Part shown: positions 6,217 through 63,516 of the stretch, one piece after another
Position numbering within the stretch: the stretch's first letter is position 1
Layout of the letters: each line of letters begins with the position of its first letter
Source: an uncultured Ectothiorhodospiraceae bacterium
Lineage (GTDB): Bacteria; Pseudomonadota; Gammaproteobacteria; JAABTG01
Assembly (NCBI GenBank): GCA_937867305.1
Contig: CALMKJ010000156.1
Coordinates: 12,011 to 76,010, forward strand
Direction of reading: 5' to 3'
Length of the DNA: 64,000 bases
Notes under the pieces: generated by a model
What the model was told of the DNA's origin: nothing
Seen by the model: only the letters and a program-made list of their open reading frames with translations
Database searches by the model: none
Made by a program: the position numbers and the translations under genes

Positions 6217-6295
6217 CCGGTCATCGGACCCGACAGGTACACCGTGTCGATGCCGTGGTGCCGGGCCGGAAGCGGAGCGGCGGCGGGATTCGTCG

Positions 6296-6658: not shown

Positions 6659-6852
6659 CGGGTCACACGCTCAGCAGTGACCACTGCCCGGTCCAACCCG
6701 AGAGCCGTGAACACGTCACGTGCCTCCGGTCCGGTGAGCTGCCGGTCCCGGACGGCCCGGGCCAGACGCAACGCGGCGTCCAACTGCATGTCCGCGGGGA
6801 CGTCGGGAACCGACCTGATCTGCTGCCAGTCCCGACCGACCTTCTGTGCCAT
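6655..6852 (-). CDS. hypothetical small protein (65 aa)
   Basis: Track ORF with second Met start; GAGG RBS 6-7 nt upstream. Confidence 0.4.
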   Translation of the reverse strand: MAQKVGRDWQQIRSVPDVPADMQLDAALRLARAVRDRQLTGPEARDVFTALGLDRAVVTAERVTR

Positions 6853-6941
6853 CACGACCTCGTCTCGCTCACGCGCGTTCGGATGCGGGTGACCCCGCTG
6901 TGGTCACGTTGTGTGCGGAGAGCTCCCGGCCGTGCACCCGT

Positions 6942-21236: not shown

Positions 21237-21322
21237 GCCGTCCCTGTGCCACACCCCGTCCACGAGGTGGCCAGAAACGATGGTGCGGAGGTAAAACCGC
21301 AGGTCAGAGCCGGTTCAGGAGG

Positions 21323-28115: not shown

Positions 28116-28167
28116 CACCCCAGTGGCCCGGGTGCACGTACCTCGTCATCCCGCACACAGGTGCTTC

Positions 28168-29031: not shown

Positions 29032-29143
29032 CTGGCGGGTCCGGCTACGCTGAGCATCGAAGCCCTGGGGTAACCCGAGCACCCCGGGGCTTCGCCATGC
29101 CCGGACGGTGCACGGGACGTCCGGCCCCGCACACAGACACGGC

Positions 29144-30365: not shown

Positions 30366-30544
30366 GGCCCCGTTTCGGTATCCGTTGAACGTTCCGTCAC
30401 CGGTTCGGGCCCTCATCGACCCCTGATCGCCCGGAGGGCGAAGTGTTGCGGGGGCGGGGGCGAGGTGTTGTGCGGGGTTCAGTCCGGGTGAACTGTCCGG
30501 TTATCGAACGTTCCGGGGTGCTGTTCGGCGCGTGTCGGTTGCGC

Positions 30545-36035: not shown

Positions 36036-39000
36036 ATGTCGACCGCCCGCGCCCGCCCGCGTTCTCGTTCGCGTTCTGCCGCCCAGCAGCCGCAGGGCAC
36101 CGAGGCGTTCGTGGTCCTGCTGGTGGTCACCGGCCTTGTCGCCGGCCTTGCTGGCGTGTGGTTCGGGGTGCCTGGGTTCGTGTTCACCTGGTTCGCGTGG
36201 GTGGTTGCGGCGTGGGCGTTGACGCCGCCTGAGCTGACCGGCACCGACATGAACCGCAACCCGGTTCCGCAGGGTCCGCGCGAGGAGCGTGCGATGCGCC
36301 GGTTCAACTTCGCCAGGTCGGCGAAGTGGGGTCTGGTGTTCCCGTTCCACGCGTTCTGGCCGGGTTGGCCGGTGAAGGCGGCGTGGCTGGCCGGCCTGGT
36401 GGCCGGGTTGGCGGCGTTCCTGGTCCCGCACCGGGCGGTACCGGGTCGGCCGCCGTTCGCGTTGAACGTGGTGGACGGGTTGTTCGTGCTCGTTCTGGTC
36501 ACCCAGGCGGCTGCGGCTCGCCGCGACTCGGTGGTGCTCGGCGACCGGTCGCCGGGGGTGGCGGTCGACGGGCTGCGGGGCTTGTTCGCCGACGCGTCGG
36601 CGAAGCTGCCGCGTGAAGCCGCCTTCGGTCTGGTCACAGCGGCCGGTCTGTTCGGTGGGGCGGTCGGCTGGTGGTACGTGGCCCCGTTGCTGGGTGCCCC
36701 GGCACCGTTGGGTTCGTTCGCGGGCCCGTTGTGGGGTGTCGTCGGCTTGTTCACGGGTCTGGGTGCCGCGGCCGGGCCGGCGTGGGTGTCGGCGTCGTTG
36801 ACGCATTGGCGCACCGTGGTCGCGGCCCGCCGGGAGTGGGCCCCGTGCTGGACCATGTTGAAGCACGTGAACCCGCCGCAGCTCCTGGACCGGCGTACGG
36901 TCGGCCCGGCGATCGTGGACACGTTCCGAGCGGACGGGTCGATGGGGTCACAGTCGTACCTGCGGCTGGGCGAGAAGATCTTGCAGGCCAGGGGCACATC
37001 GCACCGGATCGCGGTGCACACGGTCCCGGCCCGTGACCCGCAAGGTCAACCGATCCCGGGTTCGGCGGACCCGCTCGGGTTCCTGATCGTGTCGTGGCCC
37101 AACGACGTCGCACCGGACCTGACGGACCCTTCCGAAGACCCGGCGGTCCTGCGGCTGTACGTCGAGTCGGTGTTCGCGTGGCTTGGTGAAGGGTGGGGCG
37201 CGGGCCCGGTCTTGGACGAGATGACTCTGCTGACGACTCCGGACGCCGCGGCGGCGTGGATGTTGACGCTGTTCTCTGCCGGGTCGTTGCAGTGGGACGG
37301 GTTGCGCCGCGAAGGCATCAAAGGGATGTCCGGGTACCTGGGGTGCCAGGTGTTGGTCGACCACCGGGACCCGCAGGCGAACAAGCCGACCGGGCAGGCG
37401 GTGTACGCCGGCAACCTGACACACGACCCGGAGCTGTCCGGTGAGTCCCCTGTTTCGGCCGACGACTTGGAGTACCTGCACTACGAAGACGAATGGAACG
37501 GCCGGTGGGCGGCTGCGCTGAAACGGGACTCGAACCCTCCGACCCCGTACCGGTCGACCCGGTCGACGGAGAAGCTGCCGAACGGGCAGGAGATCCACCG
37601 GATGGCGTTCGTGACCCGCCAAGGCGTCGACCCGCGCGAGTTCTTCAACCTGGAAGCGAAAGTGGCGGCGACCTTGTCCGGTGCCCCGTTCCTCACGATC
37701 ACGGGGTGGCAGTTGAACAACCGGGCCGGCGAACGGCACGCGCAGGCGTTCACTGTGTTCTGGTCGTCGGCCGCGGTGCCGGGGAACCCGGACCGGTTGC
37801 CGCCGGCACCGCCTCCTGGTCGCCCCGAACGCGGCCGTAGGGGGCGTGTCGCCCCGCCGAGCACGGATGCTCAACGATGGGTGTTGGGCGGCATCGTCAA
37901 CGACGCGTTCAAGGCTGCCCGGTTGGCTCGACCGGAGGTGCACAAGGTCCGGTGTCTGACCGACCCGGGGTCTCGCGGCCACATCTGGGCGTTGAGCATC
38001 CGGCTGTTCGACGGCGTGACGTTGGCGGACGTGCGAGGCGCTTCGCAACGGTTGCGTCAGCAGATGGGCAGCGAATGGCTGCGGGTCGAGTCCGCGGCCG
38101 ACGGCGTCACGATCGTTGCAGGGGTGTCCCCGTCGAGGGCCACCGTCGCGACCAAGCACGACTCGGACTGGCTGGTCTCGTTGGACTGGGAGCAGGCGTG
38201 GCTGGACTCGAAGGTGTCCGGTGTCGGCGGGTTCACTCCGCGTCTGGTCGAGGTGGGCAACCTGCCGGCGAACCAGCAGGTCCAGGTGCTCGACTTTTCG
38301 TTGCCGTCGGGTCTGGCTGTCGGGGACGTGAAGGCGGCGACCAGCAAGTTGGAGACGGCGACCGGGAACGCGTTCGTGGATGTGCGGATGCACCCGAACG
38401 GGAAGCCGGACATGATGCGGGTTCTGGTGTGCGAGGTGAGCCCGTTGCCCGAGCGAGTCAACTTCGACTTCGAGGCGGCTGACGCCGCTGACGGGGTGGT
38501 GTTTGCGACCGGGGTCGAAGGCGAGCCGATTGTGTTCGACTCGTCGTCGTCGCCGCACGCGCTCCTGGCTGGCACCACCGGCTCAGGAAAAAGCGTGCTG
38601 GCCCAGTGCTTCTTGTACGGGTTCTTGACGGCACCGGGTGGTGCGGACGTCTACGTGATCGACCCGATCAAGGGCGCCGCGGACTTCAAGTTCGCGGAAC
38701 CGTACGCGAAGGCGTTCGCTGTCGACACGTTCCAGGCGGCCGGGGTGTTGAAGACCGTGTACGCGGAAGTGGTGCGCCGCAAGAACGAGAACGCGAAGCA
38801 TGGTGCTTCTTCGTACCGGGAGCTGCCGGACCCGCCATTGCCGATCGTGGTCATGATCGACGAGTTCACGTCGCTCATGGGTCAGTCGCCGGTCCCGAAA
38901 CCGTCGGACGACCCAGAGATGGAACGTGAACGAGCCCTGCTGATCGCGGACAACGCGGCCCGGGTGGAGGTCGGTGTGCTGACCGGGAAACTGGCCCGCG

Positions 39001-39989
39001 AAGCGCGTTCGGCCGGCGTGACTCTGCTGCTGGCGACCCAGAAACTGACCGCCAAAATGTTGGAGGTGGTGCCGGGGTCGAGCGATCTGAAGCAGAACCT
39101 GGCCCACATTCTGCTCGGCAACGCCTCTTCATGGGACCGGCAGTCGGCGTTGACCAGGCCCGAGAATGCTCCGCCGCTGGTCGGCCACGTCCCGAAGGGC
39201 CGCGGCTTGTGGGAGTCGTTGACGTCCAACGCCGTCGTCATCCAGACGTGGTTCGCACCGCAGAACGTGATGGCTCACGAGCTGTCGTCGCGTGGGCGGG
39301 TGCTGGAGGAGTCGGAGAAGGTCGACCTGTCTCGTTTCACGGCGCCGGCTTTGGAGGTCGACGGGGAGGTCATCGGCCCGGCGAACCCGGTGTTCACGGG
39401 TCCGGCGGAGGTCGATGAGGTGATCGAGCTCGACGACCTCGAGTTCAGCTTGGACGACTTGGAGCTCGACCTCGACGACGTACCGCCTCCGGGCGAGGGC
39501 GAGTCACAGGGGCCTGATTCTCCGGTCGCTCCGGCACCTTCTCTGCCGACGGCCGAGTCGGCTGACCCGGATGTGGTGAGTGTCGGTTCGGAGGTCGTGT
39601 GGGACGAAGTAGACCCGTCGCCGTGGACCCCGGAGGTGTCCGACTACGGGTGGGACGAGGTGGACGCGTTCGAGGCGTTCTTGGCCGAGTTCGGTCATGT
39701 CGGCCAGGTGACGTGGATGGACCCGAGGTTGTTGACGCCGGGCCCGGACGGGTCGCTCCTGGTGGACACGGTCCAGGAGATCGCGGATGCGGCCGGTGTC
39801 GTGTTCACGGGTCCGGACCTCCCTGTTCCCACCCCACCGTCTCCCGCTCCGGCGGCGGCGAACCTGGTCGACTTCGACTTCGAGGAGCGTCCGTCGGTTC
39901 CCCCGCACACCTTGCCGGCAACACCGGGGGACGACTTTGACGCGCCTGCGCCGCCTCCGGTTCGCGACGAGGAGGACCCGTTCGCATGA
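36036..39989 (+). CDS. large membrane-bound FtsK/SpoIIIE-family ATPase (1317 aa)
   Basis: N-terminal TM helices (AFVVLLVVTGLVAGLAGVWFGVPGFVFTWFAWVVAAWAL); a single P-loop LLAGTTGSGKSVLAQ followed by VYVIDPIKG; Walker B VVMIDEFTSLMG; acidic repeat-rich C-terminal tail. Variant class-2 motif CGGCACAGGGAAGGC directly precedes the ATG. Confidence 0.6.
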   Translation: MSTARARPRSRSRSAAQQPQGTEAFVVLLVVTGLVAGLAGVWFGVPGFVFTWFAWVVAAWALTPPELTGTDMNRNPVPQGPREERAMRRFNFARSAKWGLVFPFHAFWPGWPVKAAWLAGLVAGLAAFLVPHRAVPGRPPFALNVVDGLFVLVLVTQAAAARRDSVVLGDRSPGVAVDGLRGLFADASAKLPREAAFGLVTAAGLFGGAVGWWYVAPLLGAPAPLGSFAGPLWGVVGLFTGLGAAAGPAWVSASLTHWRTVVAARREWAPCWTMLKHVNPPQLLDRRTVGPAIVDTFRADGSMGSQSYLRLGEKILQARGTSHRIAVHTVPARDPQGQPIPGSADPLGFLIVSWPNDVAPDLTDPSEDPAVLRLYVESVFAWLGEGWGAGPVLDEMTLLTTPDAAAAWMLTLFSAGSLQWDGLRREGIKGMSGYLGCQVLVDHRDPQANKPTGQAVYAGNLTHDPELSGESPVSADDLEYLHYEDEWNGRWAAALKRDSNPPTPYRSTRSTEKLPNGQEIHRMAFVTRQGVDPREFFNLEAKVAATLSGAPFLTITGWQLNNRAGERHAQAFTVFWSSAAVPGNPDRLPPAPPPGRPERGRRGRVAPPSTDAQRWVLGGIVNDAFKAARLARPEVHKVRCLTDPGSRGHIWALSIRLFDGVTLADVRGASQRLRQQMGSEWLRVESAADGVTIVAGVSPSRATVATKHDSDWLVSLDWEQAWLDSKVSGVGGFTPRLVEVGNLPANQQVQVLDFSLPSGLAVGDVKAATSKLETATGNAFVDVRMHPNGKPDMMRVLVCEVSPLPERVNFDFEAADAADGVVFATGVEGEPIVFDSSSSPHALLAGTTGSGKSVLAQCFLYGFLTAPGGADVYVIDPIKGAADFKFAEPYAKAFAVDTFQAAGVLKTVYAEVVRRKNENAKHGASSYRELPDPPLPIVVMIDEFTSLMGQSPVPKPSDDPEMERERALLIADNAARVEVGVLTGKLAREARSAGVTLLLATQKLTAKMLEVVPGSSDLKQNLAHILLGNASSWDRQSALTRPENAPPLVGHVPKGRGLWESLTSNAVVIQTWFAPQNVMAHELSSRGRVLEESEKVDLSRFTAPALEVDGEVIGPANPVFTGPAEVDEVIELDDLEFSLDDLELDLDDVPPPGEGESQGPDSPVAPAPSLPTAESADPDVVSVGSEVVWDEVDPSPWTPEVSDYGWDEVDAFEAFLAEFGHVGQVTWMDPRLLTPGPDGSLLVDTVQEIADAAGVVFTGPDLPVPTPPSPAPAAANLVDFDFEERPSVPPHTLPATPGDDFDAPAPPPVRDEEDPFA

Positions 39990-40540
39990 CGATTCCGAAC
40001 GACGACACCCCGGTGGTCGCTGACGTGTGTACGGGTGACGTGGTCGCCGAATGGTGGGGGTTGTACCGCGGTGACGTGCGGGCCCGCTTGGGTGACATGA
40101 CTCGCGACCACGGGTTGGCGGACGACTTGACCGTGGAGACGTTCGTGCGGCTGATCCGGCATCTGCGCTTGGGGCGTCCGACCCCGGACAACCCGAAGGC
40201 GTGGCTGCGGGTCACGTCCCGGCGGCTGCTGATCGACCATCTGCGCAGGTCGGCGGTGCGCGCTGAGGAGCCGCGGGCCGACATGCCGGTCATGGTGTCG
40301 TTCTCCGACTTCGACGCCGTGGCTCGTTCGGAGGAGGCGCGTGCGTGGCTCGATACACTCGACCCGAGACAGCGCACGATCATGGAGCTGCGCGACTTCC
40401 ACGACCTTTCGACCGCCGAAGTGGCCGGCATCTTGGGGATGACGGAGCAGGCGGTTCGGTCGGCCCGCCACAAGGCGGTGGTCCATCTGCGTGGGCGAGG
40501 TGCCCCGCACCGTGACGTTGCCGAGGAGGCGAGCGCGTGA
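39986..40540 (+). CDS. ECF-type sigma-70 family sigma factor
   Basis: Region 2 (DLTVETFVRLIRHLRLGRPTPDNPKAWLRVTSRRLLIDHLRR) and region 4 (LDPRQRTIMELRDFHDLSTAEVAGILGMTEQAVRSARHKA); ATGA overlap with the upstream gene. Confidence 0.6.
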   Translation: MTIPNDDTPVVADVCTGDVVAEWWGLYRGDVRARLGDMTRDHGLADDLTVETFVRLIRHLRLGRPTPDNPKAWLRVTSRRLLIDHLRRSAVRAEEPRADMPVMVSFSDFDAVARSEEARAWLDTLDPRQRTIMELRDFHDLSTAEVAGILGMTEQAVRSARHKAVVHLRGRGAPHRDVAEEASA

Positions 40541-41602: not shown

Positions 41603-41649
41603 ACCTGTTCTGTGTGCGGGGCCGGCTGTTGCGTGCACCTTGCTCTGGT

Positions 41650-42447
41650 TCAGACCTCCGCGGTGATGCGGTGCGGGTAGGTGCGCCGGTATTCGCGGAC
41701 GGCGTAGGCGACGGCGTGGCACGACATGAGGAAGTGGTGGCTGTACCCGCCGAGGTCCCATTCCCACGTGTCGGCGAACTGGAAGTTCCTGTCTGACGGC
41801 AGCCGGACCTCGAAGTCGTCGAGCAGTTCGCGGGCTTCGCGTTCGTCGGTCGGGGGCAGGTCGATGAGCCGGTTGTGGACGGCGTCCCGGATGAGAGCCT
41901 GGTTGGATTCGCTGTACCAACCGGAGGCGTCGTCGAGGTGGTTGCGGATGTGCTCTTCGTACACCTCGAAGTCGAAGTCGTCTTTGGTTTGTCCACAGAC
42001 GACTTTCTCGCCCCAGTAGCCGGGGTTGATGCCGGTCCCGTTGAAGAAGTCCATCATGTCGTGGAGCCTGCGGAATGTGTACGGGGCGAAGTCTCCGCCG
42101 ACGTGCAGGTGTCCGGGCCACGTGACGATGTCGAAGTAGTAGAACCGGCTCTTCGGGGCGGCGAACCGCAGGTGCCGGTACGGGGACCCGGCGGGGCCGG
42201 ACACGTCGTGCAGCACCGTCATGGTGTGGTCGGCGGTGACGGACTCGAAGTATGCCTGGGCGCGGACCAGCGAGGTCCAGTAGGTGGTGGCGGGCCGTTC
42301 CGTCCCGTCGACGATGACGGTGGAGGGTCGTTGGGGAGCAGGCCAGATACCGGATGCGGACCGCTTGGGGTCAGGCTCGGGGTGTTCGGTGCCGAGCACC
42401 TCGTCGACGACGGGACCGGTGACGGTCTCGGTGCGGGGTTTGGTCAT
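41650..42447 (-). CDS. hypothetical protein (about 265 aa)
   Basis: Internal ATG (MTKPRTETVTG...) of track ORF 41650..42483, directly after a class-1 motif; the upstream codons of the ORF are simply the motif translated. Confidence 0.5.
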   Translation of the reverse strand: MTKPRTETVTGPVVDEVLGTEHPEPDPKRSASGIWPAPQRPSTVIVDGTERPATTYWTSLVRAQAYFESVTADHTMTVLHDVSGPAGSPYRHLRFAAPKSRFYYFDIVTWPGHLHVGGDFAPYTFRRLHDMMDFFNGTGINPGYWGEKVVCGQTKDDFDFEVYEEHIRNHLDDASGWYSESNQALIRDAVHNRLIDLPPTDEREARELLDDFEVRLPSDRNFQFADTWEWDLGGYSHHFLMSCHAVAYAVREYRRTYPHRITAEV

Positions 42448-42455
42448 GCCCGGGT

Positions 42456-42528
42456 TGTGTGCGGGTCCGGCGGGTTGGTGCACCCGGCCGGGTGTCGATC
42501 GGTTCGGCTTCGTCCCCGCACACCATGC
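42456..42528. promoter_or_regulatory. divergent control region: minus-oriented class-1 motif for 41650..42447 and plus-oriented CCCCGCACACC for 42533..43543, sharing a central GGTGCACC palindrome
   Basis: Seen directly in the 85-bp intergenic space between the two divergent start codons. Confidence 0.4.
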
Positions 42529-42532
42529 AGGT

Positions 42533-43543
42533 ATGAGCGCATCTGTCAGTAGGGGAGCCGAGTCGGCTCGTGAAGCCGCCCGTCAGCGGAACGGCAAGTT
42601 CGGGGCCCAGCACCTCCCGGAAGGCGACGGCGTCGACTTGGTTGTCGGGTCCGACGAGTTCGCTGCGGTCGCGTCTACGGACCGGCGGGTACGTGACCTG
42701 TTGGGCGACGTGGACGACTACCTGTTGGGCACCGTCACCCGCCCCGAATGGGTGGACCGGTTGTCCGAGCGGCTGCCCGCGATCGGGGACGCGGTGGGTC
42801 ATGACCGGTCGTTCGACGAGGAGTTCCTGCGCCCGCTGGTGTTGGCCGCGGAGGCTGGCGACGTGGACGAGGCGCGCCGGATCGCACGCAAGCTCGTCGA
42901 CCTGGATGTGGCGGAGCAGGCGTACCTGGACCAGGACTGGCGTCCGCCTGGGGTGCTGGTCGAGCGCGAAGACCTCATGTACGGCAACGTGTTCACCGGC
43001 GAGCGGTACGACTCGCGGCGCCGGCTGTCGGAGACGGCGAAGCTGATGCGCGCCGACATCAAGGACGCTCAGGCTGCCGGGTACATCCCGCCCGAGTTCA
43101 CCTACCGGGTGGTGACCGACTCGGGTGGCGGCGCGGTCCGCATCGAGGTGGAAGGGATGCCGGACGAGGACGCGTTCTGGCGTGACTACCACTCGCCGTA
43201 CCGGAACGGCCGCGAGTTCGGCACCCGTCCGTCGTGGGCGCGGTACCGGTTGACCGACCGGTTGAGAGGCATCGGCCGGGCGTACGCACGGCAGCAGAAC
43301 AACAGCCAGGTCGACTACTTCAACAACTCCCACGACGTGGCCGTGACCATCCGGCAGGAGTCGGAGACGATGTACTGGCGGCACGTGAAGGAGAGGTCGA
43401 ACCTGGCCGCGGAGATCCGTCGAACCCCCGCCAGTGACCCGAACCGGACCGAGCTGTTGGCGCAAGCCGAGGCGTTGCACACCGAGCAGAAGAAGGAGCT
43501 CGCCGCGAAACAGGAAGCCGACCGGGCCTCCTGGGGTTGGTGA
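42533..43543 (+). CDS. hypothetical protein (336 aa) with N-terminal SAREAARxxNGKFG motif shared with the ArdC-like protein
   Basis: Internal ATG of track ORF 42284..43543, preceded by CCCCGCACACC. N-terminus MSASVSRGAESAREAARQRNGKFGAQH, compared with MSTIQISPGAASAREAARKPNGKFGEQ at 51333. Confidence 0.5.
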   Translation: MSASVSRGAESAREAARQRNGKFGAQHLPEGDGVDLVVGSDEFAAVASTDRRVRDLLGDVDDYLLGTVTRPEWVDRLSERLPAIGDAVGHDRSFDEEFLRPLVLAAEAGDVDEARRIARKLVDLDVAEQAYLDQDWRPPGVLVEREDLMYGNVFTGERYDSRRRLSETAKLMRADIKDAQAAGYIPPEFTYRVVTDSGGGAVRIEVEGMPDEDAFWRDYHSPYRNGREFGTRPSWARYRLTDRLRGIGRAYARQQNNSQVDYFNNSHDVAVTIRQESETMYWRHVKERSNLAAEIRRTPASDPNRTELLAQAEALHTEQKKELAAKQEADRASWGW

Positions 43544-43597
43544 CCCGGTCGGCTTGGTTATGGGGTTGGTCCCGAACGTCCCCGAGCCATAACTAAC

Positions 43598-44234
43598 TCA
43601 TCGGAGGAGTGGGTCGAGCCGGCCGGCGAGGGCTTTCGTCATGGACGACCTGACCCCGCCGGGGCCTTTCACTTCGTCGCGCCACCCGGTCCACGTCCAG
43701 GTACGGAACTCGTCGAACGTGTCGGCTCGTCCGGCGTTGACCTGCCGGTGGGCCGTCTCCCGGTTCCGGGTGTCGAGTTCGGCGGTGAGCCGTTCCCAGG
43801 CGACGGTCCGGTTCTGGTGCTGGGACCGTTCTTCGGTGGCGGTGACGACGATGCCGGTCGGCAGGTGGGTCAGCCGGACCGCGGAGTCGGTCTTGTTGCG
43901 GTGTTGCCCGCCGGCGCCGGACGCCCGGTACGTGTCGATTCGGACCTCTCGTTTGTCCAGGTGCACGGGGACCGGGGTGCGGTCGTCGTCGAAGAAGACG
44001 ACGGTGACCAGGGAGGAGTGGCGACGTCCGCGTTTCTCGGTGTCGGGTACCCGTTGGACACGGTGCGACCCGGCGAGCGCACGGTAGGCGGGGTCAAAGA
44101 CGGTGGAGGTGGAACGCGCCACCCTCGAACCGGGGCGTGGCCCGGGCGTGCTTGCCGATCGCGTCGGCCAGTTCTTGTGCGAACGCGGCAGCGTCCGCTC
44201 CACCCTCACCGGGGTGGATCTCCATGCGGGGCAT
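43598..44234 (-). CDS. peptide-chain release factor homologue (GGQ domain; lacks RF domain 1, PrfH/RF2-like) encoded in two frames joined at a CTT TGA C +1 frameshift site
   Basis: Frame A (44234 down to about 44094): [46 protein letters not shown], then stop. Frame B continues as [16 protein letters not shown]...RRHSSLVTV...[41 protein letters not shown]... to 43598. The junction heptamer CTTTGAC equals the prfB shift site. GAAGGGAGGG RBS and class-2 motif upstream. Confidence 0.5.
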
Positions 44235-44296
44235 GATGCCCTCCCTTCGTTGTCGTCTCCTGCCTGTGCCACCACCGTGTGACCGGGTGGCTGAGG

Positions 44297-44602
44297 TCAG
44301 CCTTCGCCGGGTTCCGCGACGAGTTTCATCGCGGCGTACAGGTCCAGCCAGGAGGCGAGATCCCCGTCCGTCTCGTCGGCGAGTCGCCGCCGGCATTCGT
44401 CGACTTCGGCGAGGAAGTGGTCTTCGGCGCGTCCGGCTGCGTAGCGCCACTGTTCGCCGTGGACCTGGTCGCCGGCGGCTTCGGCGCGTTCGGCTCGCGA
44501 CAGGAACCGCGCGGCCACCGACGCGTGCCGGGTCACCTCGGTCGCGAGCTTGTAGTTGTCGAGGTTCTTGGTCCTGTCGGTGATGGCTCGTTGTGTGCTC
44601 AT
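44297..44602 (-). CDS. hypothetical protein (101 aa)
   Basis: Internal ATG of track ORF 44297..44773, just after a class-1 motif. Confidence 0.45.
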   Translation of the reverse strand: MSTQRAITDRTKNLDNYKLATEVTRHASVAARFLSRAERAEAAGDQVHGEQWRYAAGRAEDHFLAEVDECRRRLADETDGDLASWLDLYAAMKLVAEPGEG

Positions 44603-44689
44603 GATGTTCCTGTGTGCGGGGAGACCCGGGCCGTGCACCCGTGGTCGGCTACGTTGAAGCGAGCACCCGTCAACGTGAAGGAGTTCCTT

Positions 44690-44929
44690 GTGGCTCAGGT
44701 CGAACATGTCGTCCTCGAATGCGACCTGTGCGGGGTTGAGGGTCCGCAGGACGGGCCGGGAGTGCATGAGCATTCACTCGCGTTCGATGGCCGGGCCGCC
44801 CGCATCGTCGACGCGTGCGAGGAGTGCTGGGTGCCGTACCGGGGCATGTTGGAACGGCTTTCCGACGCGGGGCGCAGCGCGAAACGGTCCGGCAGCAGAC
44901 GCAACCGGGTCGTGAGGGTGTCGTCGTGA
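44690..44929 (+). CDS. small zinc-ribbon protein (79 aa; CDLC...CEEC)
   Basis: GTG start with GAAGGAG RBS; internal to Arg-rich track ORF 44279..44929. Confidence 0.4.
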   Translation: MAQVEHVVLECDLCGVEGPQDGPGVHEHSLAFDGRAARIVDACEECWVPYRGMLERLSDAGRSAKRSGSRRNRVVRVSS

Positions 44930-45177: not shown

Positions 45178-45783
45178 TCAAGTGCCGGCTTCGGTGTCGG
45201 CGATGAGCCGTGCCACCTCGTGCACGTTGACGGGGGTGAAGTCCCACACGTCCACGCCGACGTTCACTCCGCGCTGGCGAACCGTGTACAGGTTGTGTAC
45301 GTGGCCATGGATCAGCCATCGGCCTTCGTCGCGGACCCGGAACTGGTTGTACCGGGCGTTGTCCATGTGGTCGGCCGTGTACGGGAAGTGGCTGAGCAGG
45401 ACCCGCCGCGGCGTGGCGGACGCCTTGACGGCGGGCAGGGTCAAGGTGGCGACGTCGACGACCGCGGTGAACCCGGCGTCAAGGTAGGACCGTTGGTGGG
45501 CCCATCCGTTGGTTTCGGTGACGGACGCCCGGTCGTGGTTGCCGAGCACGAGGACGTGTTCGCCGTTCAGGGACGTGACCGTCTCTGCCATGCGCCCGTT
45601 GTCGCGGGGCCCGAACCAGAAGTCGCCGAGGTGGAACGTCAGGTCGCCGGGTCCGACGACCTTGTTGTGTCGCCGGACGATCTCGGCGGTGGCGTGCTCG
45701 GAGGTCTCGAACGGCCGGTCGCAGAGCCGGTTGATGTTGTGGTGACCGTGGTGTTCGTCGGCGGTCAGGAACACGTTCGGCAT
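45178..45783 (-). CDS. calcineurin-like metallophosphoesterase
   Basis: Motifs DEHHGHHN, GDFWFG..R, GNHD, HGHVH in canonical order; internal ATG of track ORF 45178..46053; TGATG overlap with the upstream gene. Confidence 0.6.
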   Translation of the reverse strand: MPNVFLTADEHHGHHNINRLCDRPFETSEHATAEIVRRHNKVVGPGDLTFHLGDFWFGPRDNGRMAETVTSLNGEHVLVLGNHDRASVTETNGWAHQRSYLDAGFTAVVDVATLTLPAVKASATPRRVLLSHFPYTADHMDNARYNQFRVRDEGRWLIHGHVHNLYTVRQRGVNVGVDVWDFTPVNVHEVARLIADTEAGT

Positions 45784-46277
45784 CACTGTCCTGCTTCGGT
45801 GTCGGGGTCGTCGACGTGGTCGAAGGTCGCGATCTGGATGGCGGCGAGGCGTGCACGTTGCGCGGGGTCGAGGTAGCCGCTGCCTTTCGCGACCATGACG
45901 GCTTCGCGGACGGCGAGCCAGTCGTCGTGCCGCATCACCACGATGTCGGCGGTCGCGATGTGGCTGATGTGACCTGCCGCGGGTACGGGCACGGTGTCGT
46001 CGCCGACCCGGATGGTGGACACTTCGGCGGTCGTCCCCGTTTCTTCGGCCCACACGTCCTTCGCGGATCGGGTGCCGAACCGGGTGGCGACTCGTTCGCT
46101 GTTCTGCATGACGCGACGACCGTCGGCGTATTCGACGTCGAACCAGCCGTCGTCGCTGGCCCGGTACCGGTCGAGCCGGATCTTGCCGACCCGCATCTCG
46201 TTGGTGATGACGAGGAGGTTGTCGACGATCGGGACACCGTCGGCGGTGAGTCCAAGGTCAGGGTTTGGCGTGTTCAT
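45783..46277 (-). CDS. hypothetical protein (164 aa)
   Basis: Internal ATG (MNTPNPDLGL...) of track ORF 45783..46439, 8 nt after a full class-1 motif. Confidence 0.5.
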   Translation of the reverse strand: MNTPNPDLGLTADGVPIVDNLLVITNEMRVGKIRLDRYRASDDGWFDVEYADGRRVMQNSERVATRFGTRSAKDVWAEETGTTAEVSTIRVGDDTVPVPAAGHISHIATADIVVMRHDDWLAVREAVMVAKGSGYLDPAQRARLAAIQIATFDHVDDPDTEAGQ

Positions 46278-46280
46278 GCC

Positions 46281-46312
46281 TTGTCTGTGTGCGGGGCCGG
46301 CCGGTTCGTGCA
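46281..46312 (-). promoter_or_regulatory. class-1 bipartite motif (sense: GGTGCACGAACCGGCCGGCCCCGCACACAG) 8 nt upstream of the 45783..46277 start; an identical 30-mer recurs at about 46551..46582
   Basis: Exact 30-nt duplicate within 300 bp; same architecture as at least 16 other copies in the window. Confidence 0.45.
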
Positions 46313-46333
46313 CCGGTTCGGCGGGCTGAACCG

Positions 46334-46410
46334 GGTTCGCTCCGTGACCGCGGCCGGACTTGAACCGGCGACCCTCCGTCCTCGGGACGGTGTGCACCAC
46401 CAACAGGCGA
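46334..46410 (-). tRNA. degenerate tRNA-like sequence (intact acceptor stem and T-arm, aberrant D and anticodon arms); probable pseudo-tRNA or tRNA-derived remnant
   Basis: Reverse complement reads GGCCGCG CA GGTCGCCTGTTGGTGGTGCACACCGTCCCGAGGACGGAGGGTC GCCGG TTCAAGT CCGGC CGCGGTC A. It has a 7-bp acceptor stem with one G-U pair and a canonical T-loop, but no canonical 7-nt anticodon loop. Coordinates are +/-2. Confidence 0.3.
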
Positions 46411-46942
46411 CCTGCGCGGCCACGGAGCGAGTTCCCCACGAGGGGTCGGCGTGGGTGCCGTCGAGCTGTGCGGACTCGGCGCGCGTACGTCGCGCCTCAT
46501 CCTTGCAGGCTCGCTCTGCAAGTTCTGGTTAGTCGGATCGCGGTGCGTTCACGTTCAACCTGTGTGCGGGGCCGGCCGGTTCGTGCACCGGTCCGGCACA
46601 CGCAGGCTTGTCACCCAAGCGCGACTGGCTCCGGCGGACGCCGTTCCCATCCGGGTCGCCGCGGCGCGTTGAGCCGCTTCCCTGCCTCGAGGAGGACCCC
46701 GCCCCACACACCCCATTCCTGCCGTTGGAGCCCGAGTTGCAGGCATACGAGCCGGGCGGGGCAGGCGACGCAGTACGACTTCGCGTTGGCAAGCTCGATG
46801 ACGTTGTCGGGGTCGAAGATGCGCGGGTCTGCCCCCACACACGCCCATTCGAGGGAACGGTCGTGTGGCGTCGGGTGTTGTGACGCGATCTGGTGCGCTT
46901 TCGTGGCCATGCTGACGTTCACCTCCTTCGGGTTTGCGGGTT

Positions 46943-47015
46943 GTACGCCATCGGGGACTCGAACCCCGAGCCCTCGGATTAAAAGTCCGCTGCTCTACCC
47001 ATTGAGCTAATGGCG
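46943..47015 (-). tRNA. tRNA-Lys: tRNA-Lys (anticodon UUU)
   Basis: Reverse complement reads GCGCCAT TA GCTC AATGGGTA GAGC A GCGGA CTTTTAA TCCGA GGGCT CGGGG TTCGAGT CCCCG ATGGCGT A. It has a canonical cloverleaf with U33, anticodon UUU, A37, a TPsiC loop and discriminator A. A class-1 motif lies 20 nt upstream of the 5' end, with a class-2 motif further upstream. Coordinates are +/-1. Confidence 0.75.
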
Positions 47016-47028
47016 CGTGTTGACACCT

Positions 47029-47066
47029 TGATGGTGTGCGGGGTGCCCCGTCGCGTGCACCCGAAC
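47029..47066 (-). promoter_or_regulatory. class-1 motif (GGTGCACG-N12-CCCCGCACACC) 20 nt upstream of the tRNA-Lys 5' end
   Basis: Shows that the motif also precedes non-coding genes, so it behaves as a promoter rather than a translation signal. Confidence 0.45.
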
Positions 47067-47457
47067 CAGACCTGTGCCACCACCGGGTGGCCACGTGGAA
47101 GAAGGGGCGTGGTGGCTGTTCCCGCAACCGGGTGCAGTCCCTTTCGAGGCCCGCTCCGGCACGGCCGCTAAGCCGTACCGGTCAGCCCACCACTGGCGCA
47201 CATCCTTCGCCTTGCCGAGTTGTTCGTCCTCGCTTCACCCGCCGGTGAAGTCTGGTCCGCTCGGTCGCGACGCCATCTGTGCGCCGCACCCCGGATCGGG
47301 TCCGGGTACTGGTTCCGGCTGCGTACCGGGCCTCCACCAGCAGGCGCTCCGACGAGTCGGACCGGGATGTTGAGTCCCGGCGTGCTTTCTCCCGCGCACG
47401 GCTACGGCCTCCGCCTAGTTCCCCGGTTGCGAACCGGTTCTGCATGAGGTGACGCAG

Positions 47458-47530
47458 TGGGGCTGGGGAGTCTTGAACTCCCGACCTCCTGCGCTTGCCG
47501 CAGGCGCTCTACCAACTGAGCTACAGCCTC
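47458..47530 (-). tRNA. tRNA-like sequence with noncanonical anticodon loop (GGCAAGC, G at position 33) and an A-C mismatch in the acceptor stem; possible pseudo-tRNA
   Basis: Reverse complement reads GAGGCTG TA GCTC AGTTGGTA GAGC G CCTGC GGCAAGC GCAGG AGGTC GGGAG TTCAAGA CTCCC CAGCCCC A. The D-arm and T-arm are canonical. A class-1 motif lies about 48 nt upstream. Confidence 0.35.
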
Positions 47531-47632
47531 TTCAACAGGTACTGCGTGCGGCGGCTCGGGGACCACCTTTGCTGCCGTACAACCTACCTGTGTGCGGGAA
47601 CTCCCGGTTCGTGCACCGTTACGCTGCCGGTC

Positions 47633-47902
47633 ATGGCGTTGATGCCCAACGAGCTGAGGACCTTGGACCGGCACGCGCGCGGCGTCGGTCGGCGCATCGG
47701 GCACTCGATGCGTGTCTTCGTGCCGTCGAACGAGGAGTACCTGGCGTTGACGGTGCTGCACGACGGCGTCGAATGGTCGTTGGTGGGCCCGTCCCGGGTG
47801 GACAACGACTTGGTAGCCCACGACATCGACGCGACGTTGTGGTTGCTGTCGGTTGGGGCGTGCCGGATCGAGTCGACTGACGATGGGCCCCGGATCGCCT
47901 GA
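47633..47902 (+). CDS. hypothetical protein (89 aa)
   Basis: Internal ATG of track ORF 47495..47902; normal composition (VFVPSNEEYLALTVLHDGVEWSLVG); no recognisable RBS or motif. Confidence 0.3.
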   Translation: MALMPNELRTLDRHARGVGRRIGHSMRVFVPSNEEYLALTVLHDGVEWSLVGPSRVDNDLVAHDIDATLWLLSVGACRIESTDDGPRIA

Positions 47903-47935: not shown

Positions 47936-48871
47936 ATGAGCTTCAATCACGCGAACACGGTGTGGCAGTCACCGGACGGCACCTGGAACCGGGGCTTCCA
48001 CCCGGTCGACTACTACGAGTGCGGCATGTCGGACGACTGCGACGACGAGACCCATGAGTGGTGCGCGGTGTTCGACGACGACTCGTTCGAGTGGGTCTCG
48101 GGCGGGCACCGGACCGTCGACGAGGCGTACGCCTCGTGGGACGGCGCCAACCCGGGCAGCGCGGAGCAACGGGCCCCGTACGCGAAGCAGGACGAGGCGG
48201 GTCGTCGTGACATCGAGCGGTTGGAGGACATGGCCGCGAGGCTGTGCGAGAGGAACCCTCAGTGGTCGTATCGGGGTCCGCGGAGGCAGCGGACGTTGGC
48301 TGCGGTCGCGGCCCAGCGCAACGAGGTCGAGAGCGCCCAGTTCGGGTACCGGTTGGGCGGCTACGCCAACGACGTGACCGAGGAGTTGAAGGCCCTGAAC
48401 GATCGTGTTGTTGAGCGGTTGACGAGTGCCACCGACGATGAGAAGCGCGCCTACTTGGATCTGCAACGCGACCGCCGGGACGGTCTGCAGAAGATGTTGG
48501 ACGAGCATCTGGACCGGCGCCGGAAGCAGATCGTCCGGGACCGTCGGTACACCTTCTCGTCGTACCCCAGCCCGGAGTCGGCGGGCCGGCTGGCCGCTGT
48601 GTCGAAGGCTGAGGACGACGTAGCGAAGCGCATCGCGGCGATCGACCGAACACGGGCGCGGCAGCGTCAGGAGTTCTTCGAGCAGCCGACACCCAAGCCG
48701 GCTACCGCACCGGCCAAGAAGACGGCCGTCAAGAAGGCACCAGCGACGACACCGGCGCCGGCGAACCGGGGGAAGACGACCGCGGCGTCGACACCAGGGT
48801 CGTTCGCACCGAAAGCACTGGGCGAGGGCGACGTGGTGCTCATCGACGACCTGTGGGACGCCCCGAACTGA
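47936..48871 (+). CDS. hypothetical protein (311 aa) with Lys/Ala/Pro-rich tail ending RGKTTAASTPGSFAPK...
   Basis: Track ORF; class-1 motif CCCCGCACACC 9 nt upstream; C-terminal tail shared with the next gene. Confidence 0.5.
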   Translation: MSFNHANTVWQSPDGTWNRGFHPVDYYECGMSDDCDDETHEWCAVFDDDSFEWVSGGHRTVDEAYASWDGANPGSAEQRAPYAKQDEAGRRDIERLEDMAARLCERNPQWSYRGPRRQRTLAAVAAQRNEVESAQFGYRLGGYANDVTEELKALNDRVVERLTSATDDEKRAYLDLQRDRRDGLQKMLDEHLDRRRKQIVRDRRYTFSSYPSPESAGRLAAVSKAEDDVAKRIAAIDRTRARQRQEFFEQPTPKPATAPAKKTAVKKAPATTPAPANRGKTTAASTPGSFAPKALGEGDVVLIDDLWDAPN

Positions 48872-51332: not shown

Positions 51333-52391
51333 ATGAGCACCATACAGATCAGTCCGGGCGCGGCGTCGGCCCGTGAAGCGGCCCGGAAGCCGAACGGCAA
51401 GTTCGGTGAGCAGGAGCACGACGAGTCCGGGGTCCCGTTGGACGTGCCGGGTCGGGCGTTCAGCCCGTCCGAGACGTTCACCCGCCGGTACGAGTCGGTG
51501 GACGAGAAGGTCGCGGCGTTCAAGGTCGAGATCGACCGTGCGGTGGAGTCGCTCGCCGATGACGAGAACTGGCTCGACTACCTGGACATGGCGTCGAAGT
51601 TCTACCGCTACTCCCCCACGAACCAGTTGTTGATCGCGATCCAGACCGGTGGTCGGGCAACCCAGGTCGCGGGGTTCCGGAAGTGGAAGGACGAGTTCGG
51701 CCGCACGGTCAAGAAAGGTGAGAAGGCGATCGGCATCTTGGCGCCGCGGGTCGTCAACGTGACCGAGAAGGACGCCGGTGGGGCACCGGTGAAAGGACCG
51801 GACGGCAAACCGGTGAAGCGCCGGCAGGTGGTCGGGTTCACGACGGCGTCGGTGTTCGACGTGTCCCAGACCGAAGGCGACCCGTTGCCGGAGCTCGAAC
51901 GCGAGCTGTCCGACGACCCGCCTGAAGGGTTCCTCGACGACTTGGAGGCTGCCGCGAAGGCAGCCGGGTACACGGTCGAGTACCGCGAGATGAACTCGCA
52001 CTCGAACCGTACCGCGCAGGGCTGGACGGACCCGAAGAGCAAGGTCATCGTGGTTGACTCCGCGCTGAGCCGCGGCTCCGTCGCGGCGACCCTCGCGCAC
52101 GAGATCGGGCACGTGTACGCCGGGCATTGCGACCCTGAGAACGACGGGAAGTACCACGTCGGCGAAGGCGGGTGCCGGGGCCGGTTCGAGGTGGAAGCCG
52201 ACTCGGTCGCGTACGTGGTCCAGCGCGCCAACGGGGTGTACCCGGGCCAGGCGACGAAGCTGACAGCCCAGTACGTGGCCGGGTGGTCGCGGCACGACAA
52301 GGACGCGTTGCGTGAGTCCGCCGACGCGGTCTCGAAAGCGTCGAAGGCGATCCTGTCCGCAGTCCCGTTCCGGTCCGTTCAGGACGCCTGA
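51333..52391 (+). CDS. ardC: ArdC-like antirestriction protein (N-terminal ssDNA-binding ArdC domain plus C-terminal HExxH zincin-like metallopeptidase)
   Basis: FYRYSPTNQLLIAIQTGGRATQVAGFRKWKDEFGRTVKKGEKAIGILAP matches the ArdC N-domain pattern; TLAHEIGHVYAGHCD is an HExxH motif; class-1 motif CCCGCACACC 9 nt upstream. Confidence 0.6.
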   Translation: MSTIQISPGAASAREAARKPNGKFGEQEHDESGVPLDVPGRAFSPSETFTRRYESVDEKVAAFKVEIDRAVESLADDENWLDYLDMASKFYRYSPTNQLLIAIQTGGRATQVAGFRKWKDEFGRTVKKGEKAIGILAPRVVNVTEKDAGGAPVKGPDGKPVKRRQVVGFTTASVFDVSQTEGDPLPELERELSDDPPEGFLDDLEAAAKAAGYTVEYREMNSHSNRTAQGWTDPKSKVIVVDSALSRGSVAATLAHEIGHVYAGHCDPENDGKYHVGEGGCRGRFEVEADSVAYVVQRANGVYPGQATKLTAQYVAGWSRHDKDALRESADAVSKASKAILSAVPFRSVQDA

Positions 52392-53229: not shown

Positions 53230-53273
53230 CCGGCCGGGAGCATCAACGGCCCTGACCCGCACACCAGGATGGT

Positions 53274-58199: not shown

Positions 58200-58760
58200 A
58201 TGATCGACCAGAGCCACATGCTTCCCGAAGATGTGCGTGAACGTGTCCGCCGTGAGGTGACCGGCCAGATCGGCGCGGAGAACCACCGCCTCATCCGGGC
58301 GGTGGCGGTCCGGGTCCTCCTCACGTTGGCGTTGGTCAGCTACGTCCTGATCACGTTGGACACGGTGGAGGATGAGCCTGAGTTCTTCGCGCTCATGTTC
58401 GCGTCCGTGACCGCGTTGGCGGGCCTGGTCGCGGCTGATGCGTCGTTGCGGATCCCGCAACTGTTCGCCGGCGCGGTGGCGAGGCGTCAGCCGTTCGCGA
58501 TCCCGGCGGACCCGAGCCGTTGGTTGAAGTGGGCGACTGTCGGTGCGTCCGCGACGTTGTGGGTGCTGCCGTTGAGCGCGGGCACGGGGACTTTCCTTTC
58601 CGGTGTTGCGTTGGCGGTTGCGTTGCTGCCTGTCTTGTTCTTCGTTTCCAACGTGGTGTTGCGTGCGTCGTTGGCTCAGTGGGTCGGGTTGCCGGCCCGG
58701 GTCACGATGGACCTCGTGTCGGGTCGAGACGGCGACGCTGATCCGCGCACTGGTGCATGA
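58200..58760 (+). CDS. integral membrane protein (186 aa)
   Basis: Track ORF; GGAACAAGGAG RBS; 4-5 predicted TM helices. Confidence 0.45.
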   Translation: MIDQSHMLPEDVRERVRREVTGQIGAENHRLIRAVAVRVLLTLALVSYVLITLDTVEDEPEFFALMFASVTALAGLVAADASLRIPQLFAGAVARRQPFAIPADPSRWLKWATVGASATLWVLPLSAGTGTFLSGVALAVALLPVLFFVSNVVLRASLAQWVGLPARVTMDLVSGRDGDADPRTGA

Positions 58761-58788
58761 GGCGGGTCTTCCCGCACACAACCCAGCC

Positions 58789-61764: not shown

Positions 61765-62174
61765 CGCACGAGGCCGAGGTGCACGCCACCGGTCTCTCCG
61801 CACACAACCCGGACGTGACCAGCTTCCAGGTGTTCCGCCGCGTCGGAACCAAGAACGAGACCTGCCTGTACGGCGGCCGGCACACGGTCGTGTACGTCGA
61901 TTCGGTCTGGGTGACCCCGACGGGCGAGACCCGGCCTTACGACAACGGCTACGAGACGGGCGAGAACAAGCTGTTCGTCGACCAGGACGGCGAGGTGTAC
62001 GAGCGCGTCCAAGGCTTCGACTACTGCAGTGTCCCGCGGTGGGTCCGTGACAGCGACCGGAAGCGGTTCGAGCGCAGGTGGACCGACCCGGCCCGCGAAC
62101 TGACCGGCAACGGCTTGAACGGGTGCCCTTCCGGCGCCCCGTGGTGGGCTGTCGAAGACGAGCGCCGCCATTGA
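61761..62174 (+). CDS. hypothetical protein (137 aa)
   Basis: ATGA overlap with the upstream stop; tail of track ORF 61476..62174. Confidence 0.45.
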   Translation: MTHEAEVHATGLSAHNPDVTSFQVFRRVGTKNETCLYGGRHTVVYVDSVWVTPTGETRPYDNGYETGENKLFVDQDGEVYERVQGFDYCSVPRWVRDSDRKRFERRWTDPARELTGNGLNGCPSGAPWWAVEDERRH

Positions 62175-63477: not shown

Positions 63478-63516
63478 TGTGTGCGGGGAGCACGTTTGGC
63501 GTCTTCCCGCACACAG
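63478..63516. promoter_or_regulatory. perfect inverted repeat CTGTGTGCGGGGA-N14-TCCCCGCACACAG (two class-1 cores facing each other) between the pilin-like gene and the cvpA-like gene
   Basis: Seen directly; the right arm is the class-1 element 8 nt upstream of the cvpA-like ATG. Confidence 0.4.

Follow-up and report, generated by a model that had tools for sequence, protein, structure and literature searches.

A small tRNA island with a candidate pair of codon-matched cargo tRNAs and a tRNA-derived structure on a conjugative-looking element

Do the tRNA genes of a mobile element serve the codons of its own genes, or are they the remains of a larger set? This question is raised by a stretch of 64,000 nucleotides (contig CALMKJ010000156.1 of the GenBank assembly GCA_937867305.1, positions 12,011 to 76,010, listed under an uncultured Ectothiorhodospiraceae bacterium), which as a whole is referred to as the window in the following. 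The window has a GC content of 68% and harbors a tRNA island, in which two tRNAs and one tRNA-derived relic lie within 1.2 kb; elsewhere in the window neither ARAGORN nor Rfam detected any tRNA gene. All three sequences are located on the minus strand, as had been stated in the original prediction that was made from the sequence alone. We regard it as probable, yet far from certain, that the island is cargo: a pair of tRNAs that is matched to the codon bias of the element itself and driven by duplicated promoters of the element, together with a tRNA-derived relic. The island comprises the following features, in the order of their transcription:

47458-47530, minus strand: class-I tRNA with the anticodon CAA in canonical register (ARAGORN with default settings, Leu(caa) at 47457-47530; Rfam, 52 bits)
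46944-47016, minus strand: class-I tRNA-Lys with the anticodon UUU (ARAGORN, 46943-47016; Rfam RF00005, 69.6 bits, E 3.9e-13)
46611-46910, minus strand: whiB-like gene between tRNA-Lys and the relic (Pfam PF02467, E 2e-10)
46337-46430, minus strand: tRNA-derived structured sequence (TLS) with its cloverleaf core at 46344-46421 (fold, inverted repeat I9 and a covariance model (CM) built from this single sequence)

The two tRNAs and the codons of the element

Genes were called by the GC content at third codon positions (GC3), and this was done in the same way in the window (43 genes) and in 14 chromosomal loci of Nocardioides (L001-L014, 274 genes). Ranked by fold change, the codons that are over-used in the window are headed by:

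TTG, rank 1: 33.5% of the Leu codons in the window, 3.8% in Nocardioides L001-L014 (8.5-fold)
AAA, rank 2: 17.0% of the Lys codons in the window, 2.3% in Nocardioides L001-L014 (6.8-fold)
CAA, rank 3: 4.3-fold
GAA, rank 4: 3.8-fold

With a second baseline from Nocardioidaceae the values were 10.0-fold for TTG and 9.1-fold for AAA, which again were the top two, and TTG exceeds 15% of the Leu codons in 33 of the 43 genes. The anticodons CAA and UUU of the two island tRNAs are cognate to UUG and AAA, and therefore to exactly those two codons that are most over-used by fold change. A tRNA-Lys(UUU) had originally been considered notable in a high-GC background. AAA is indeed rare in Nocardioides, but the genes of the element use it about 7-fold more often, so that the tRNA fits the demand. 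As a natural control, three related elements (L088, L090 and L091), which contain homologs with about 44% identity to a 311-amino-acid protein encoded near the island, show host-like values of 4.5% for TTG and 0.4% for AAA, and they contain neither tRNAs nor the promoter-like motif GTGCAY-N14-CGCACAC that is dealt with below. A recoding of UUG was considered and rejected, since in alignments with homologs Leu is found at 49.6% of the TTG-coded positions and at 44.8% of the CTN-coded ones, and TTG positions thus align to Leu as often as CTN positions do.

The plus strand is strongly skewed between 30000 and 48000, with more G than C (GC skew as high as +0.20) and more T than A (AT skew as low as -0.32). 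Gene 30518-33109 has TTG at 51 of its 67 Leu codons, and the minus-strand genes at 41650-44773 beside the island have none. The strand skew and the UUG pattern suggest a strand-specific C-to-T pressure, as could act for example on single-stranded DNA that is exposed in transfer or replication.

The tRNA-Lys(UUU) lies far above the gathering score of RF00005, which is 29 bits, and in the Rfam alignment its anticodon loop CUUUUAA has 7 nt with U33 and A37, as is expected of a tRNA. The claim that it folds canonically therefore holds in so far as it is a real tRNA, but it is good rather than flawless, since the pair G1·U72 is a wobble and G27·A43 is mismatched. Its CCA end is not encoded, and its 3' end is located 33 nt upstream of the start codon of whiB. 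The latter is preceded by a Shine-Dalgarno sequence (GGAGG, 46922-46926), in contrast to the leaderless genes of the element. No terminator-like site is present on the minus strand inside the island, and tRNA-Lys and whiB are apparently part of one transcript. The WhiB protein has homologs in Nocardioides with 45-55% identity, the closest of them with 52-55%; the exact protein was a singleton in the protein search, in which the next best homolog was 55% identical.

The tRNA with the anticodon CAA (hereafter CAA tRNA) requires a closer look, as it had been described as degenerate. Both observations behind that view, G33 in the anticodon loop and an A-C mismatch in the acceptor stem, are correct, but the sequence is a bona fide tRNA for ARAGORN as well as for Rfam, where it scores above the gathering score with an E value of 2.8e-8 over the whole window and of 8.6e-10 in a 2-kb search. 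In the first whole-window run of Rfam it had been dropped by the speed filters, and it was recovered in permissive runs. All nucleotides for tertiary contacts are kept (U8, A14, G15-C48, G18G19, A21 and G53T54T55C56A58C61), the variable loop consists of the 5 nt AGGUC (A44 G45 G46 U47 C48) without a long arm, and the discriminator position is A73. The anticodon loop reads GGCAAGC (G32 G33 C34 A35 A36 G37 C38). Compared with a functional elongator, which has U33, unpaired positions 32 and 38 and a loop of 7 nt, the CAA tRNA falls short.

The label "Leu" given by ARAGORN derives from the anticodon alone, and the amino acid must therefore be approached via the body of the tRNA. By established identity rules, the only synthetases that ignore the anticodon are those for leucine (LeuRS), serine (SerRS) and alanine (AlaRS). 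AlaRS requires G3·U70 and SerRS requires a long variable arm. The CAA tRNA has G3-C70, and thus no G3·U70, and it has no long arm, which excludes AlaRS and SerRS and leaves LeuRS as the only candidate. Judged from these identity elements, the CAA tRNA, if it is charged at all, would be leucylated by LeuRS. Bacterial tRNALeu ordinarily belongs to class II. A class-I tRNALeu(CAA) with a variable loop of 5 nt is present in Streptomyces coelicolor and is charged by the LeuRS of that organism (PMC6614811), and for its leucylation U8-A14 and C74 are required and the variable loop must have 5 nt or more, whereas A73 is dispensable (PMC6614811). The window tRNA agrees with it in class, anticodon, length of the variable loop, U8-A14 and A73, and C74 would have to be added post-transcriptionally. 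The two differ in variable-loop sequence, which is AGGUC in the window and ACAGC in S. coelicolor, the comparison being one of described features and not of a full alignment (PMC6614811). Moreover, G32/G33 and A2·C71 occur only in the window tRNA, whereas the S. coelicolor tRNA is an essential chromosomal reader of UUG (PMC6614811).

The origin of the CAA tRNA was also considered. Its best full-length match is a tRNA-Ala(tgc) of a Streptomyces phage (79%), but a tRNA-Ala origin is insecure, as G3·U70 is absent. A search of IMG/VR for class-I CAA tRNAs with U33 and the same body yielded eight chance matches and not a single tRNA, and distant blastn with the island returned generic tRNA similarity only. 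"Decaying cargo", one of the readings offered originally, is not the best one for the CAA tRNA, which passes the scoring tools and is cognate to the most over-used codon. It was likely selected as a decoder of UUG, and it may or may not be active at present. More speculative, and rather unlikely in our view, is the combined idea that the tRNA with G32/G33 is a working, Leu-charged decoder of UUG that does without U33, perhaps after selection for resistance to anticodon nucleases, and that the neighboring RNA with its closed loops is not junk but a structured element kept for processing or as a decoy. It would then be a natural elongator tRNA of bacteria, and would enable a conjugative element of 68% GC to cope with UUG at one third of its leucine codons; "it" here is the tRNA with G32/G33.

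A promoter-like motif and its duplicated cassettes

The motif GTGCAY-N14-CGCACAC is found at about 18 sites on both strands of the window. At about 14 genes, again on both strands, ATG or GTG follows exactly 9 nt after the motif, with no Shine-Dalgarno sequence in between. A stricter form of the motif has eight copies, and none occurred in 100 shuffled sequences. Relative to the leaderless start, GTGCAC falls at about -36 to -31, and the interval from -16 to -10 is taken by CGCACAC. The motif does not resemble the sigma-70 consensus, no sigma-70-like site is present in the island, and none of the 91 related loci examined contains the motif. From its sequence and position, GTGCAY-N14-CGCACAC is probably an element-specific promoter of leaderless mRNAs. 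A gene for a sigma factor of the extracytoplasmic function (ECF) type in the window encodes a candidate reader of the motif.

39986-40540, plus strand: ECF-type sigma factor gene (Pfam Sigma70_r2, Sigma70_r4_2 and Sigma70_ECF)

The original prediction had placed a copy of such an element-specific motif upstream of each of the three tRNA-like sequences. This is fully borne out: a copy was found in front of each of them, and no shuffled sequence matched. A fourth copy belongs to the next protein gene downstream:

47590-47616, minus strand: GTGCAC-N14-CGCACAC before the CAA tRNA (repeat families D1/D2; predicted start at about 47580, leader of 50 nt)
47034-47060, minus strand: copy before tRNA-Lys (family D1, with 72% over 47 nt relative to the reference; predicted start at about 47024, leader of 8 nt)
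46562-46588, minus strand: copy before the TLS (predicted start at 46552 (GTG), leader of about 122 nt)
46287-46313, minus strand: copy of gene 45783-46277, with ATG 9 nt further on (repeat analysis)

All four belong to a single family of direct repeats, about 47 nt in length, within 1.3 kb. The spacer of the tRNA-Lys copy has diverged, with both hexamer regions intact, and 46560-46597 and 46285-46322 are 97% identical over 38 nt. The copies of tRNA-Lys and of the TLS extend into a remnant of the first about 10 nt of gene 45783-46277. At the predicted start of the TLS transcript there is an open reading frame (ORF) of seven codons (46529-46552, minus strand; GTG AAC GCA CCG CGA TCC GAC TAA), in which the 5' end of gene 45783-46277 (ATG AAC ACG CC...) is copied in diverged form. 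The copy at 46287-46313 appears to be the source or a sister of the duplicated cassettes. Since all copies belong to one repeat family and two of them are 97% identical, we conclude that the island was assembled by duplication of a promoter cassette.

Put together, the proposed course of events would be as follows. A cassette of about 47 nt with a -35-like GTGCAC and CGCACAC in the -10 region would have been duplicated into four tandem copies, which would drive, in this order, the CAA tRNA, tRNA-Lys(UUU) co-transcribed with whiB, the TLS and the next protein gene. The genes of the element would have drifted toward UUG, now one third of Leu, and AAA, now one sixth of Lys, and the two tRNAs would supply, or would once have supplied, the decoders for both codons. 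The TLS would be a former tRNA that no longer decodes after closure of its D and anticodon loops, and what persists may be a relic or a stable RNA structure in the operon.

The spacer that separates the CAA tRNA from the tRNA-Lys promoter contains no GC3-supported ORF and gave no match to Rfam. Its fold is modestly more stable than that of shuffled sequences.

47061-47456, minus strand: spacer of 396 nt (fold z -2.54)

The island is bounded by a divergent junction, where a distance of 16 nt separates the start of the plus-strand gene 47633-47902 from the -35-like element of the promoter on the minus strand. Upstream of the plus-strand gene 47936-48871, the half CGCACAC-N9-ATG of the motif is present and the upstream half is deviant. 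Examples of the motif elsewhere in the window are:

5400-5426, minus strand
28132-28158, plus strand
29108-29134, plus strand
41612-41638, minus strand
42457-42483, minus strand
44612-44638, minus strand
53238-53264, plus strand
58753-58779, plus strand
61779-61805, plus strand
63488-63514, plus strand

The tRNA-derived structured sequence

The third sequence of the island had been recognized at 46334-46410 as tRNA-like, with a perfect acceptor stem and T arm and without a valid anticodon loop. Its tRNA-like nature, the kept T arm and the missing loop were described correctly, but that interval cuts off the 5' strand of the acceptor, the true span is 46337-46430, a shift of about 10 nt, and the acceptor contains one G·U pair. 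The acceptor GGCCGCG/CGCGGUC has 7 bp including this pair, and nine further Watson-Crick pairs of the flanks extend it to a closing stem of 16 bp (46337-46352 with 46415-46430). The D-like hairpin has a loop of 4 nt, and the position of the anticodon arm is taken by the hairpin CCGUCC-CGA-GGACGG with 6 bp and a loop of 3 nt. It is followed by a variable region of 6 nt (AGGGUC) and by the T arm GCCGG-UUCAAGU-CCGGC, which is canonical. With -66.4 kcal/mol (z -3.07), the fold is more stable than those of all 200 shuffled sequences. In the fold of the whole predicted transcript of 238 nt the cloverleaf survives, that fold itself being not exceptional (z -1.73).

With the covariance model Rfam RF00005, two of the three sequences score as tRNA and the TLS does not: it gave no match at E<=10 in the 2-kb search or at E<=0.5 in the whole window. 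ARAGORN lists the TLS only at a lowered threshold (-ps80), which yields 222 spurious calls and is thus uninformative. With a CM built from the TLS alone, on the other hand, 727 kb yielded 129 matches at E<=1, and nearly all of these lie at tRNAs called by ARAGORN. The best of them are tRNA-Glu(CTC) genes of tRNA arrays (41.6 bits, E 1.4e-7), with which the TLS has the T stem in common. As a model of this single sequence recovers real tRNAs, the TLS can, by its sequence and predicted structure, clearly be taken as tRNA-derived. Its isotype of origin was sought among Glu(CTC) and Thr(CGT), and neither is secure, as the arms point to different tRNAs: the anticodon stem is nearer to tRNA-Thr(CGT) with two deletions, and the T arm and acceptor are nearer to tRNA-Glu(CTC).

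Several searches for relatives of the TLS were negative. Distant blastn with its transcript gave no match, the pattern of T arm and acceptor gave none in IMG/VR, and neither half of the TLS matched 1.3 Mb of Nocardioidaceae and related loci. The further GGTTCRANTCC sites in the window (10834, 14161 and 37526) have no T stem and no cloverleaf. The TLS resembles the tRNA-like domain of transfer-messenger RNA (tmRNA), YrlA and mascRNA in having an acceptor-like stem and a T arm without a decoding loop. Identity with any of these three was rejected, because no Rfam match is significant and ARAGORN with default settings gives no tmRNA; the best non-tRNA match in Rfam is mascRNA-menRNA with 16.2 bits and E 6.7, at a gathering score of 42.5. 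In YrlA a helix of the 5' and 3' ends takes the place of the anticodon stem, and the topology of the TLS is therefore different.

Related systems, rival explanations and the carrier element

WhiB homologs with 43-50% identity are encoded inside dense tRNA arrays, with up to 28 tRNA genes, in genomes and metagenomes of Nocardioidaceae. In many of these arrays a tRNA-Lys(CTT) lies upstream of whiB, and in nearly all of them Arg(ACG)-His(GTG) lies downstream; the tRNA-Lys of the window finds its best alignment with these tRNA-Lys(CTT) genes. Arrays with 15 to 28 tRNA genes and an embedded whiB are present in eight loci (L082 at 3688-7724, L016, L017, L021, L023, L030, L083 and L084), and many of their tRNA genes do not encode CCA. 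The array of L082 is neighbored by a tRNA-Thr, an excisionase-like gene (HTH_17), an integrase, an HNH endonuclease and an FtsK/SpoIIIE protein, and on account of its integrase, excisionase and FtsK genes we regard this array as cargo of a mobile element. In or near the arrays there are also sequences with a perfect T arm (GGTTCGAGTCC), which are not called by ARAGORN and some of which are nearly unchanged across loci (L016 13002-13248, L021 5865-6110, L025 3130-3239, L016 10656-10765 and L023 3477-3586). Non-canonical tRNAs are one possibility for them, tRNA-like RNAs another.

Arrays of tRNA genes are likewise known from chromosomes, plasmids and phages of Mycobacterium, often together with HNH and RF-1-domain genes (PMC5966550, PMC9569102), and an RF-1-domain gene is a core gene of one group of these Mycobacterium arrays (PMC5966550). 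In the window, a protein of 203 amino acids with an RF-1/GGQ domain and the end of a PCRF domain is encoded at 43598-44209 on the minus strand, 2.7 kb from the island; it aligns to about residues 174-290 of RF1 and scores below the cut-off for RF1, RF2, PrfH and ArfB. The island is similar to the array units (PMC5966550; L015-L030, L082) in having tRNAs on a mobile element, an RF-1-domain gene nearby, a whiB flanked by tRNAs and a tRNA-Lys upstream. However, with two to three genes instead of about 20-30 it is no high-density array, its genes each have a promoter cassette of their own whereas the array units are packed head-to-tail, and, unlike with the array units, no GOLLD RNA or other family besides tRNA was detected in the window by Rfam and no HNH endonuclease among about 40 of its proteins. 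Beyond whiB, no synteny was found between the window and the loci collected via WhiB, and in a quick neighbor-joining (NJ) tree the WhiB of the window is placed not in the array clade but as a deep sister to a chromosomal clade without tRNAs. A descent of the island from the whiB arrays is therefore not supported by the tree, with whiB as the only common gene.

Phages offer the second comparison. The hypothesis that phage tRNAs compensate for codon usage is attributed to Bailly-Bechet et al. (2007) in PMC10264068. The island is similar to such sets of cargo tRNAs, as its cognate codons are common in the element but little used by the presumed host, and it is different from those of phages in that the carrier looks conjugative and that there are only two tRNAs, one of them with G32/G33. 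For phage tRNAs it has also been proposed that changes of the anticodon loop block nucleases of the VapC, MazF and PrrC type, PrrC being directed against tRNA-Lys(UUU) (PMC10264068). Like these phage tRNAs, for which nuclease evasion is proposed, the island sequences differ from normal tRNAs mainly in the anticodon loop; unlike in these, the change hits U33 itself, and a nuclease context was not found near the island.

Several points weigh against cargo tRNAs that are matched to the codon bias. U33 forms the U-turn of the anticodon loop and is nearly universal, and G33 should impair decoding badly. Furthermore, G32 can pair with C38, which would result in a stem of 6 bp and a loop of 5 nt, and the acceptor stem of the CAA tRNA is less stable owing to the mismatch A2·C71. 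Its loop GGCAAGC in the same body context was not present in IMG/VR, and the single match in JGI metagenomes was due to chance and not a tRNA; both scans thus gave no sign that the loop is conserved. The Nocardioides baseline was chosen by WhiB similarity (52-55%) only and may not be that of the host. Each of the over-used codons differs from the major codon by a single GC-to-AT transition, and this distance together with the strand skew implies that the bias is mutational and that the tRNAs plausibly compensate for it. A mutational bias leaves it possible that codons and anticodons agree by coincidence, the probability of which, for the two tRNAs combined, is roughly estimated at a few per thousand. 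Finally, the function of the motif as promoter and the production of RNA are deduced from sequence.

It is possible, if rather doubtful, that the island is instead what is left of a larger tRNA array in decay, in which only tRNA-Lys is still functional, the CAA tRNA was inactivated recently through mutations in its loop and the TLS is an older pseudogene. Genes for WhiB of the same subfamily are located in Nocardioidaceae arrays of 7 to 28 tRNAs, with tRNA-Lys upstream and more tRNAs downstream, the L082 array is part of an integrase/FtsK-type element, and the tRNA-Lys of the window is closest to the tRNA-Lys(CTT) of the arrays; G32/G33 and the loop of 3 nt are disabling features, and conserved relatives of the CAA tRNA or the TLS were not found in the scans. 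Decay does not easily explain, however, why the CAA tRNA is intact outside its loop and position 2, has kept a consensus promoter and carries the anticodon for the most over-used codon, and under neutral decay it would not be expected that the four stems of the TLS are free of mismatches and that nine closing pairs were gained. The position of WhiB outside the array clade in the NJ tree and the missing synteny further speak against a larger array as the ancestor. An anti-defence role, by which the tRNAs would escape or decoy anticodon-loop nucleases, with tRNA-Lys(UUU) replacing the classic target and the altered or closed loops acting as uncleavable substitutes or decoys, appears improbable to us. 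It would agree with the nuclease proposal for phage tRNAs and with tRNA-Lys(UUU) as the target of PrrC (PMC10264068), with the fact that the CAA tRNA and the TLS, whose acceptor and T arms were called perfect, depart from normal tRNAs chiefly by closed anticodon loops, and with the RF-1/GGQ protein at a distance of 2.7 kb, as RF-1-domain genes are core to one group of Mycobacterium arrays (PMC5966550). Yet domain scans identified no nuclease, toxin or repair ligase near the island, the TLS has no free G18G19 and is a poor mimic of a tRNA, and the match of the codons can be explained without such a role; by our reading of PMC10264068, the published escape mutations appear to keep U33 and a loop of 7 nt.

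Processing signals, which had also been among the original suggestions, would act by cleavage of the RNase P/Z type, or of the RNase III type at the 16-bp stem, that frees and stabilizes the mRNA of whiB and of the genes downstream. The tRNA-Lys starts 8 nt past the predicted transcription start and ends 33 nt before the Shine-Dalgarno-led whiB, the minus strand of the island has no terminator-like site, the cloverleaf of the TLS is kept in the fold of the 238-nt transcript, and whiB between tRNAs recurs in other elements. Such a function is compatible with cargo tRNAs matched to the codon bias rather than exclusive to them, the extended stem is expected to hinder RNase P, and the fold of the full transcript is unexceptional (z -1.73), which makes processing very improbable as an explanation of its own. 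Finally, the TLS can hardly be the attachment-site (att) remnant of a tRNA-targeting integrase. Its 3' half, consisting of the T arm and the 3' acceptor strand, corresponds to the tRNA portion that is usually duplicated at att sites, but both acceptor strands are present and paired, the TLS occupies an interior position between duplicated cassettes with motif-bearing and UUG-rich genes on either side, none of about 40 scanned proteins of the window, including those encoded nearest to the island, has an integrase domain, and neither half matches the 1.3 Mb of Nocardioidaceae and related loci. The integration-site remnant of the original prediction is thus not upheld.

We therefore return to cargo tRNAs that are matched to the codon bias of the element. 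If this is true, the island would be an unusually clean case of codon compensation outside phages, as the cargo tRNAs match the top two deviating codons and related elements without the codon bias are also without tRNAs, and the duplication of the cassettes shows how such an island can be built. If the tRNA with G33 decodes, it would extend the known tolerance of the U-turn, and Actinobacteria would then have a second class-I tRNALeu(CAA) of natural origin; if it does not, the island represents one working tRNA and two stages of tRNA decay. Altogether, it is a clear and largely ordinary case of cargo tRNAs, and its only potentially surprising part is a tRNA that may work with G33.

The carrier, taken to come from a high-GC soil actinobacterium, is best explained as a conjugative-type actinobacterial element, the WhiB of which is closest to Nocardioides WhiB proteins in sequence. 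Conjugation-type domains are encoded in the window by the genes 8313-10832 (minus strand, VirB4-like AAA_10), 30518-33109 (plus strand, TrwB-like), 36111-39989 (plus strand, FtsK/SpoIIIE) and 19167-21263 (minus strand, ParA-like ATPase). Further domains comprise a PD-(D/E)XK nuclease, a methyltransferase and an ArdC-like anti-restriction protein, the gene of which (51333-52391, plus strand) encodes ArdC-N plus a metallopeptidase. Ten large proteins of the window that were scanned against PHROGs gave no match to phage structural proteins, and the element looks conjugative rather than viral. No close phage or plasmid relatives of the window were found, and megablast of the island against phages and plasmids gave no match. 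An HNH domain was likewise absent from the about 40 proteins scanned, which do not cover every ORF. At 5377-6216 on the minus strand, a gene encodes the N-terminal domain of a dATP/dGTP diphosphohydrolase (PF18909, E 3.6e-24) together with a DUF4406 segment; enzymes of this type accompany base-replacement pathways of phage DNA.

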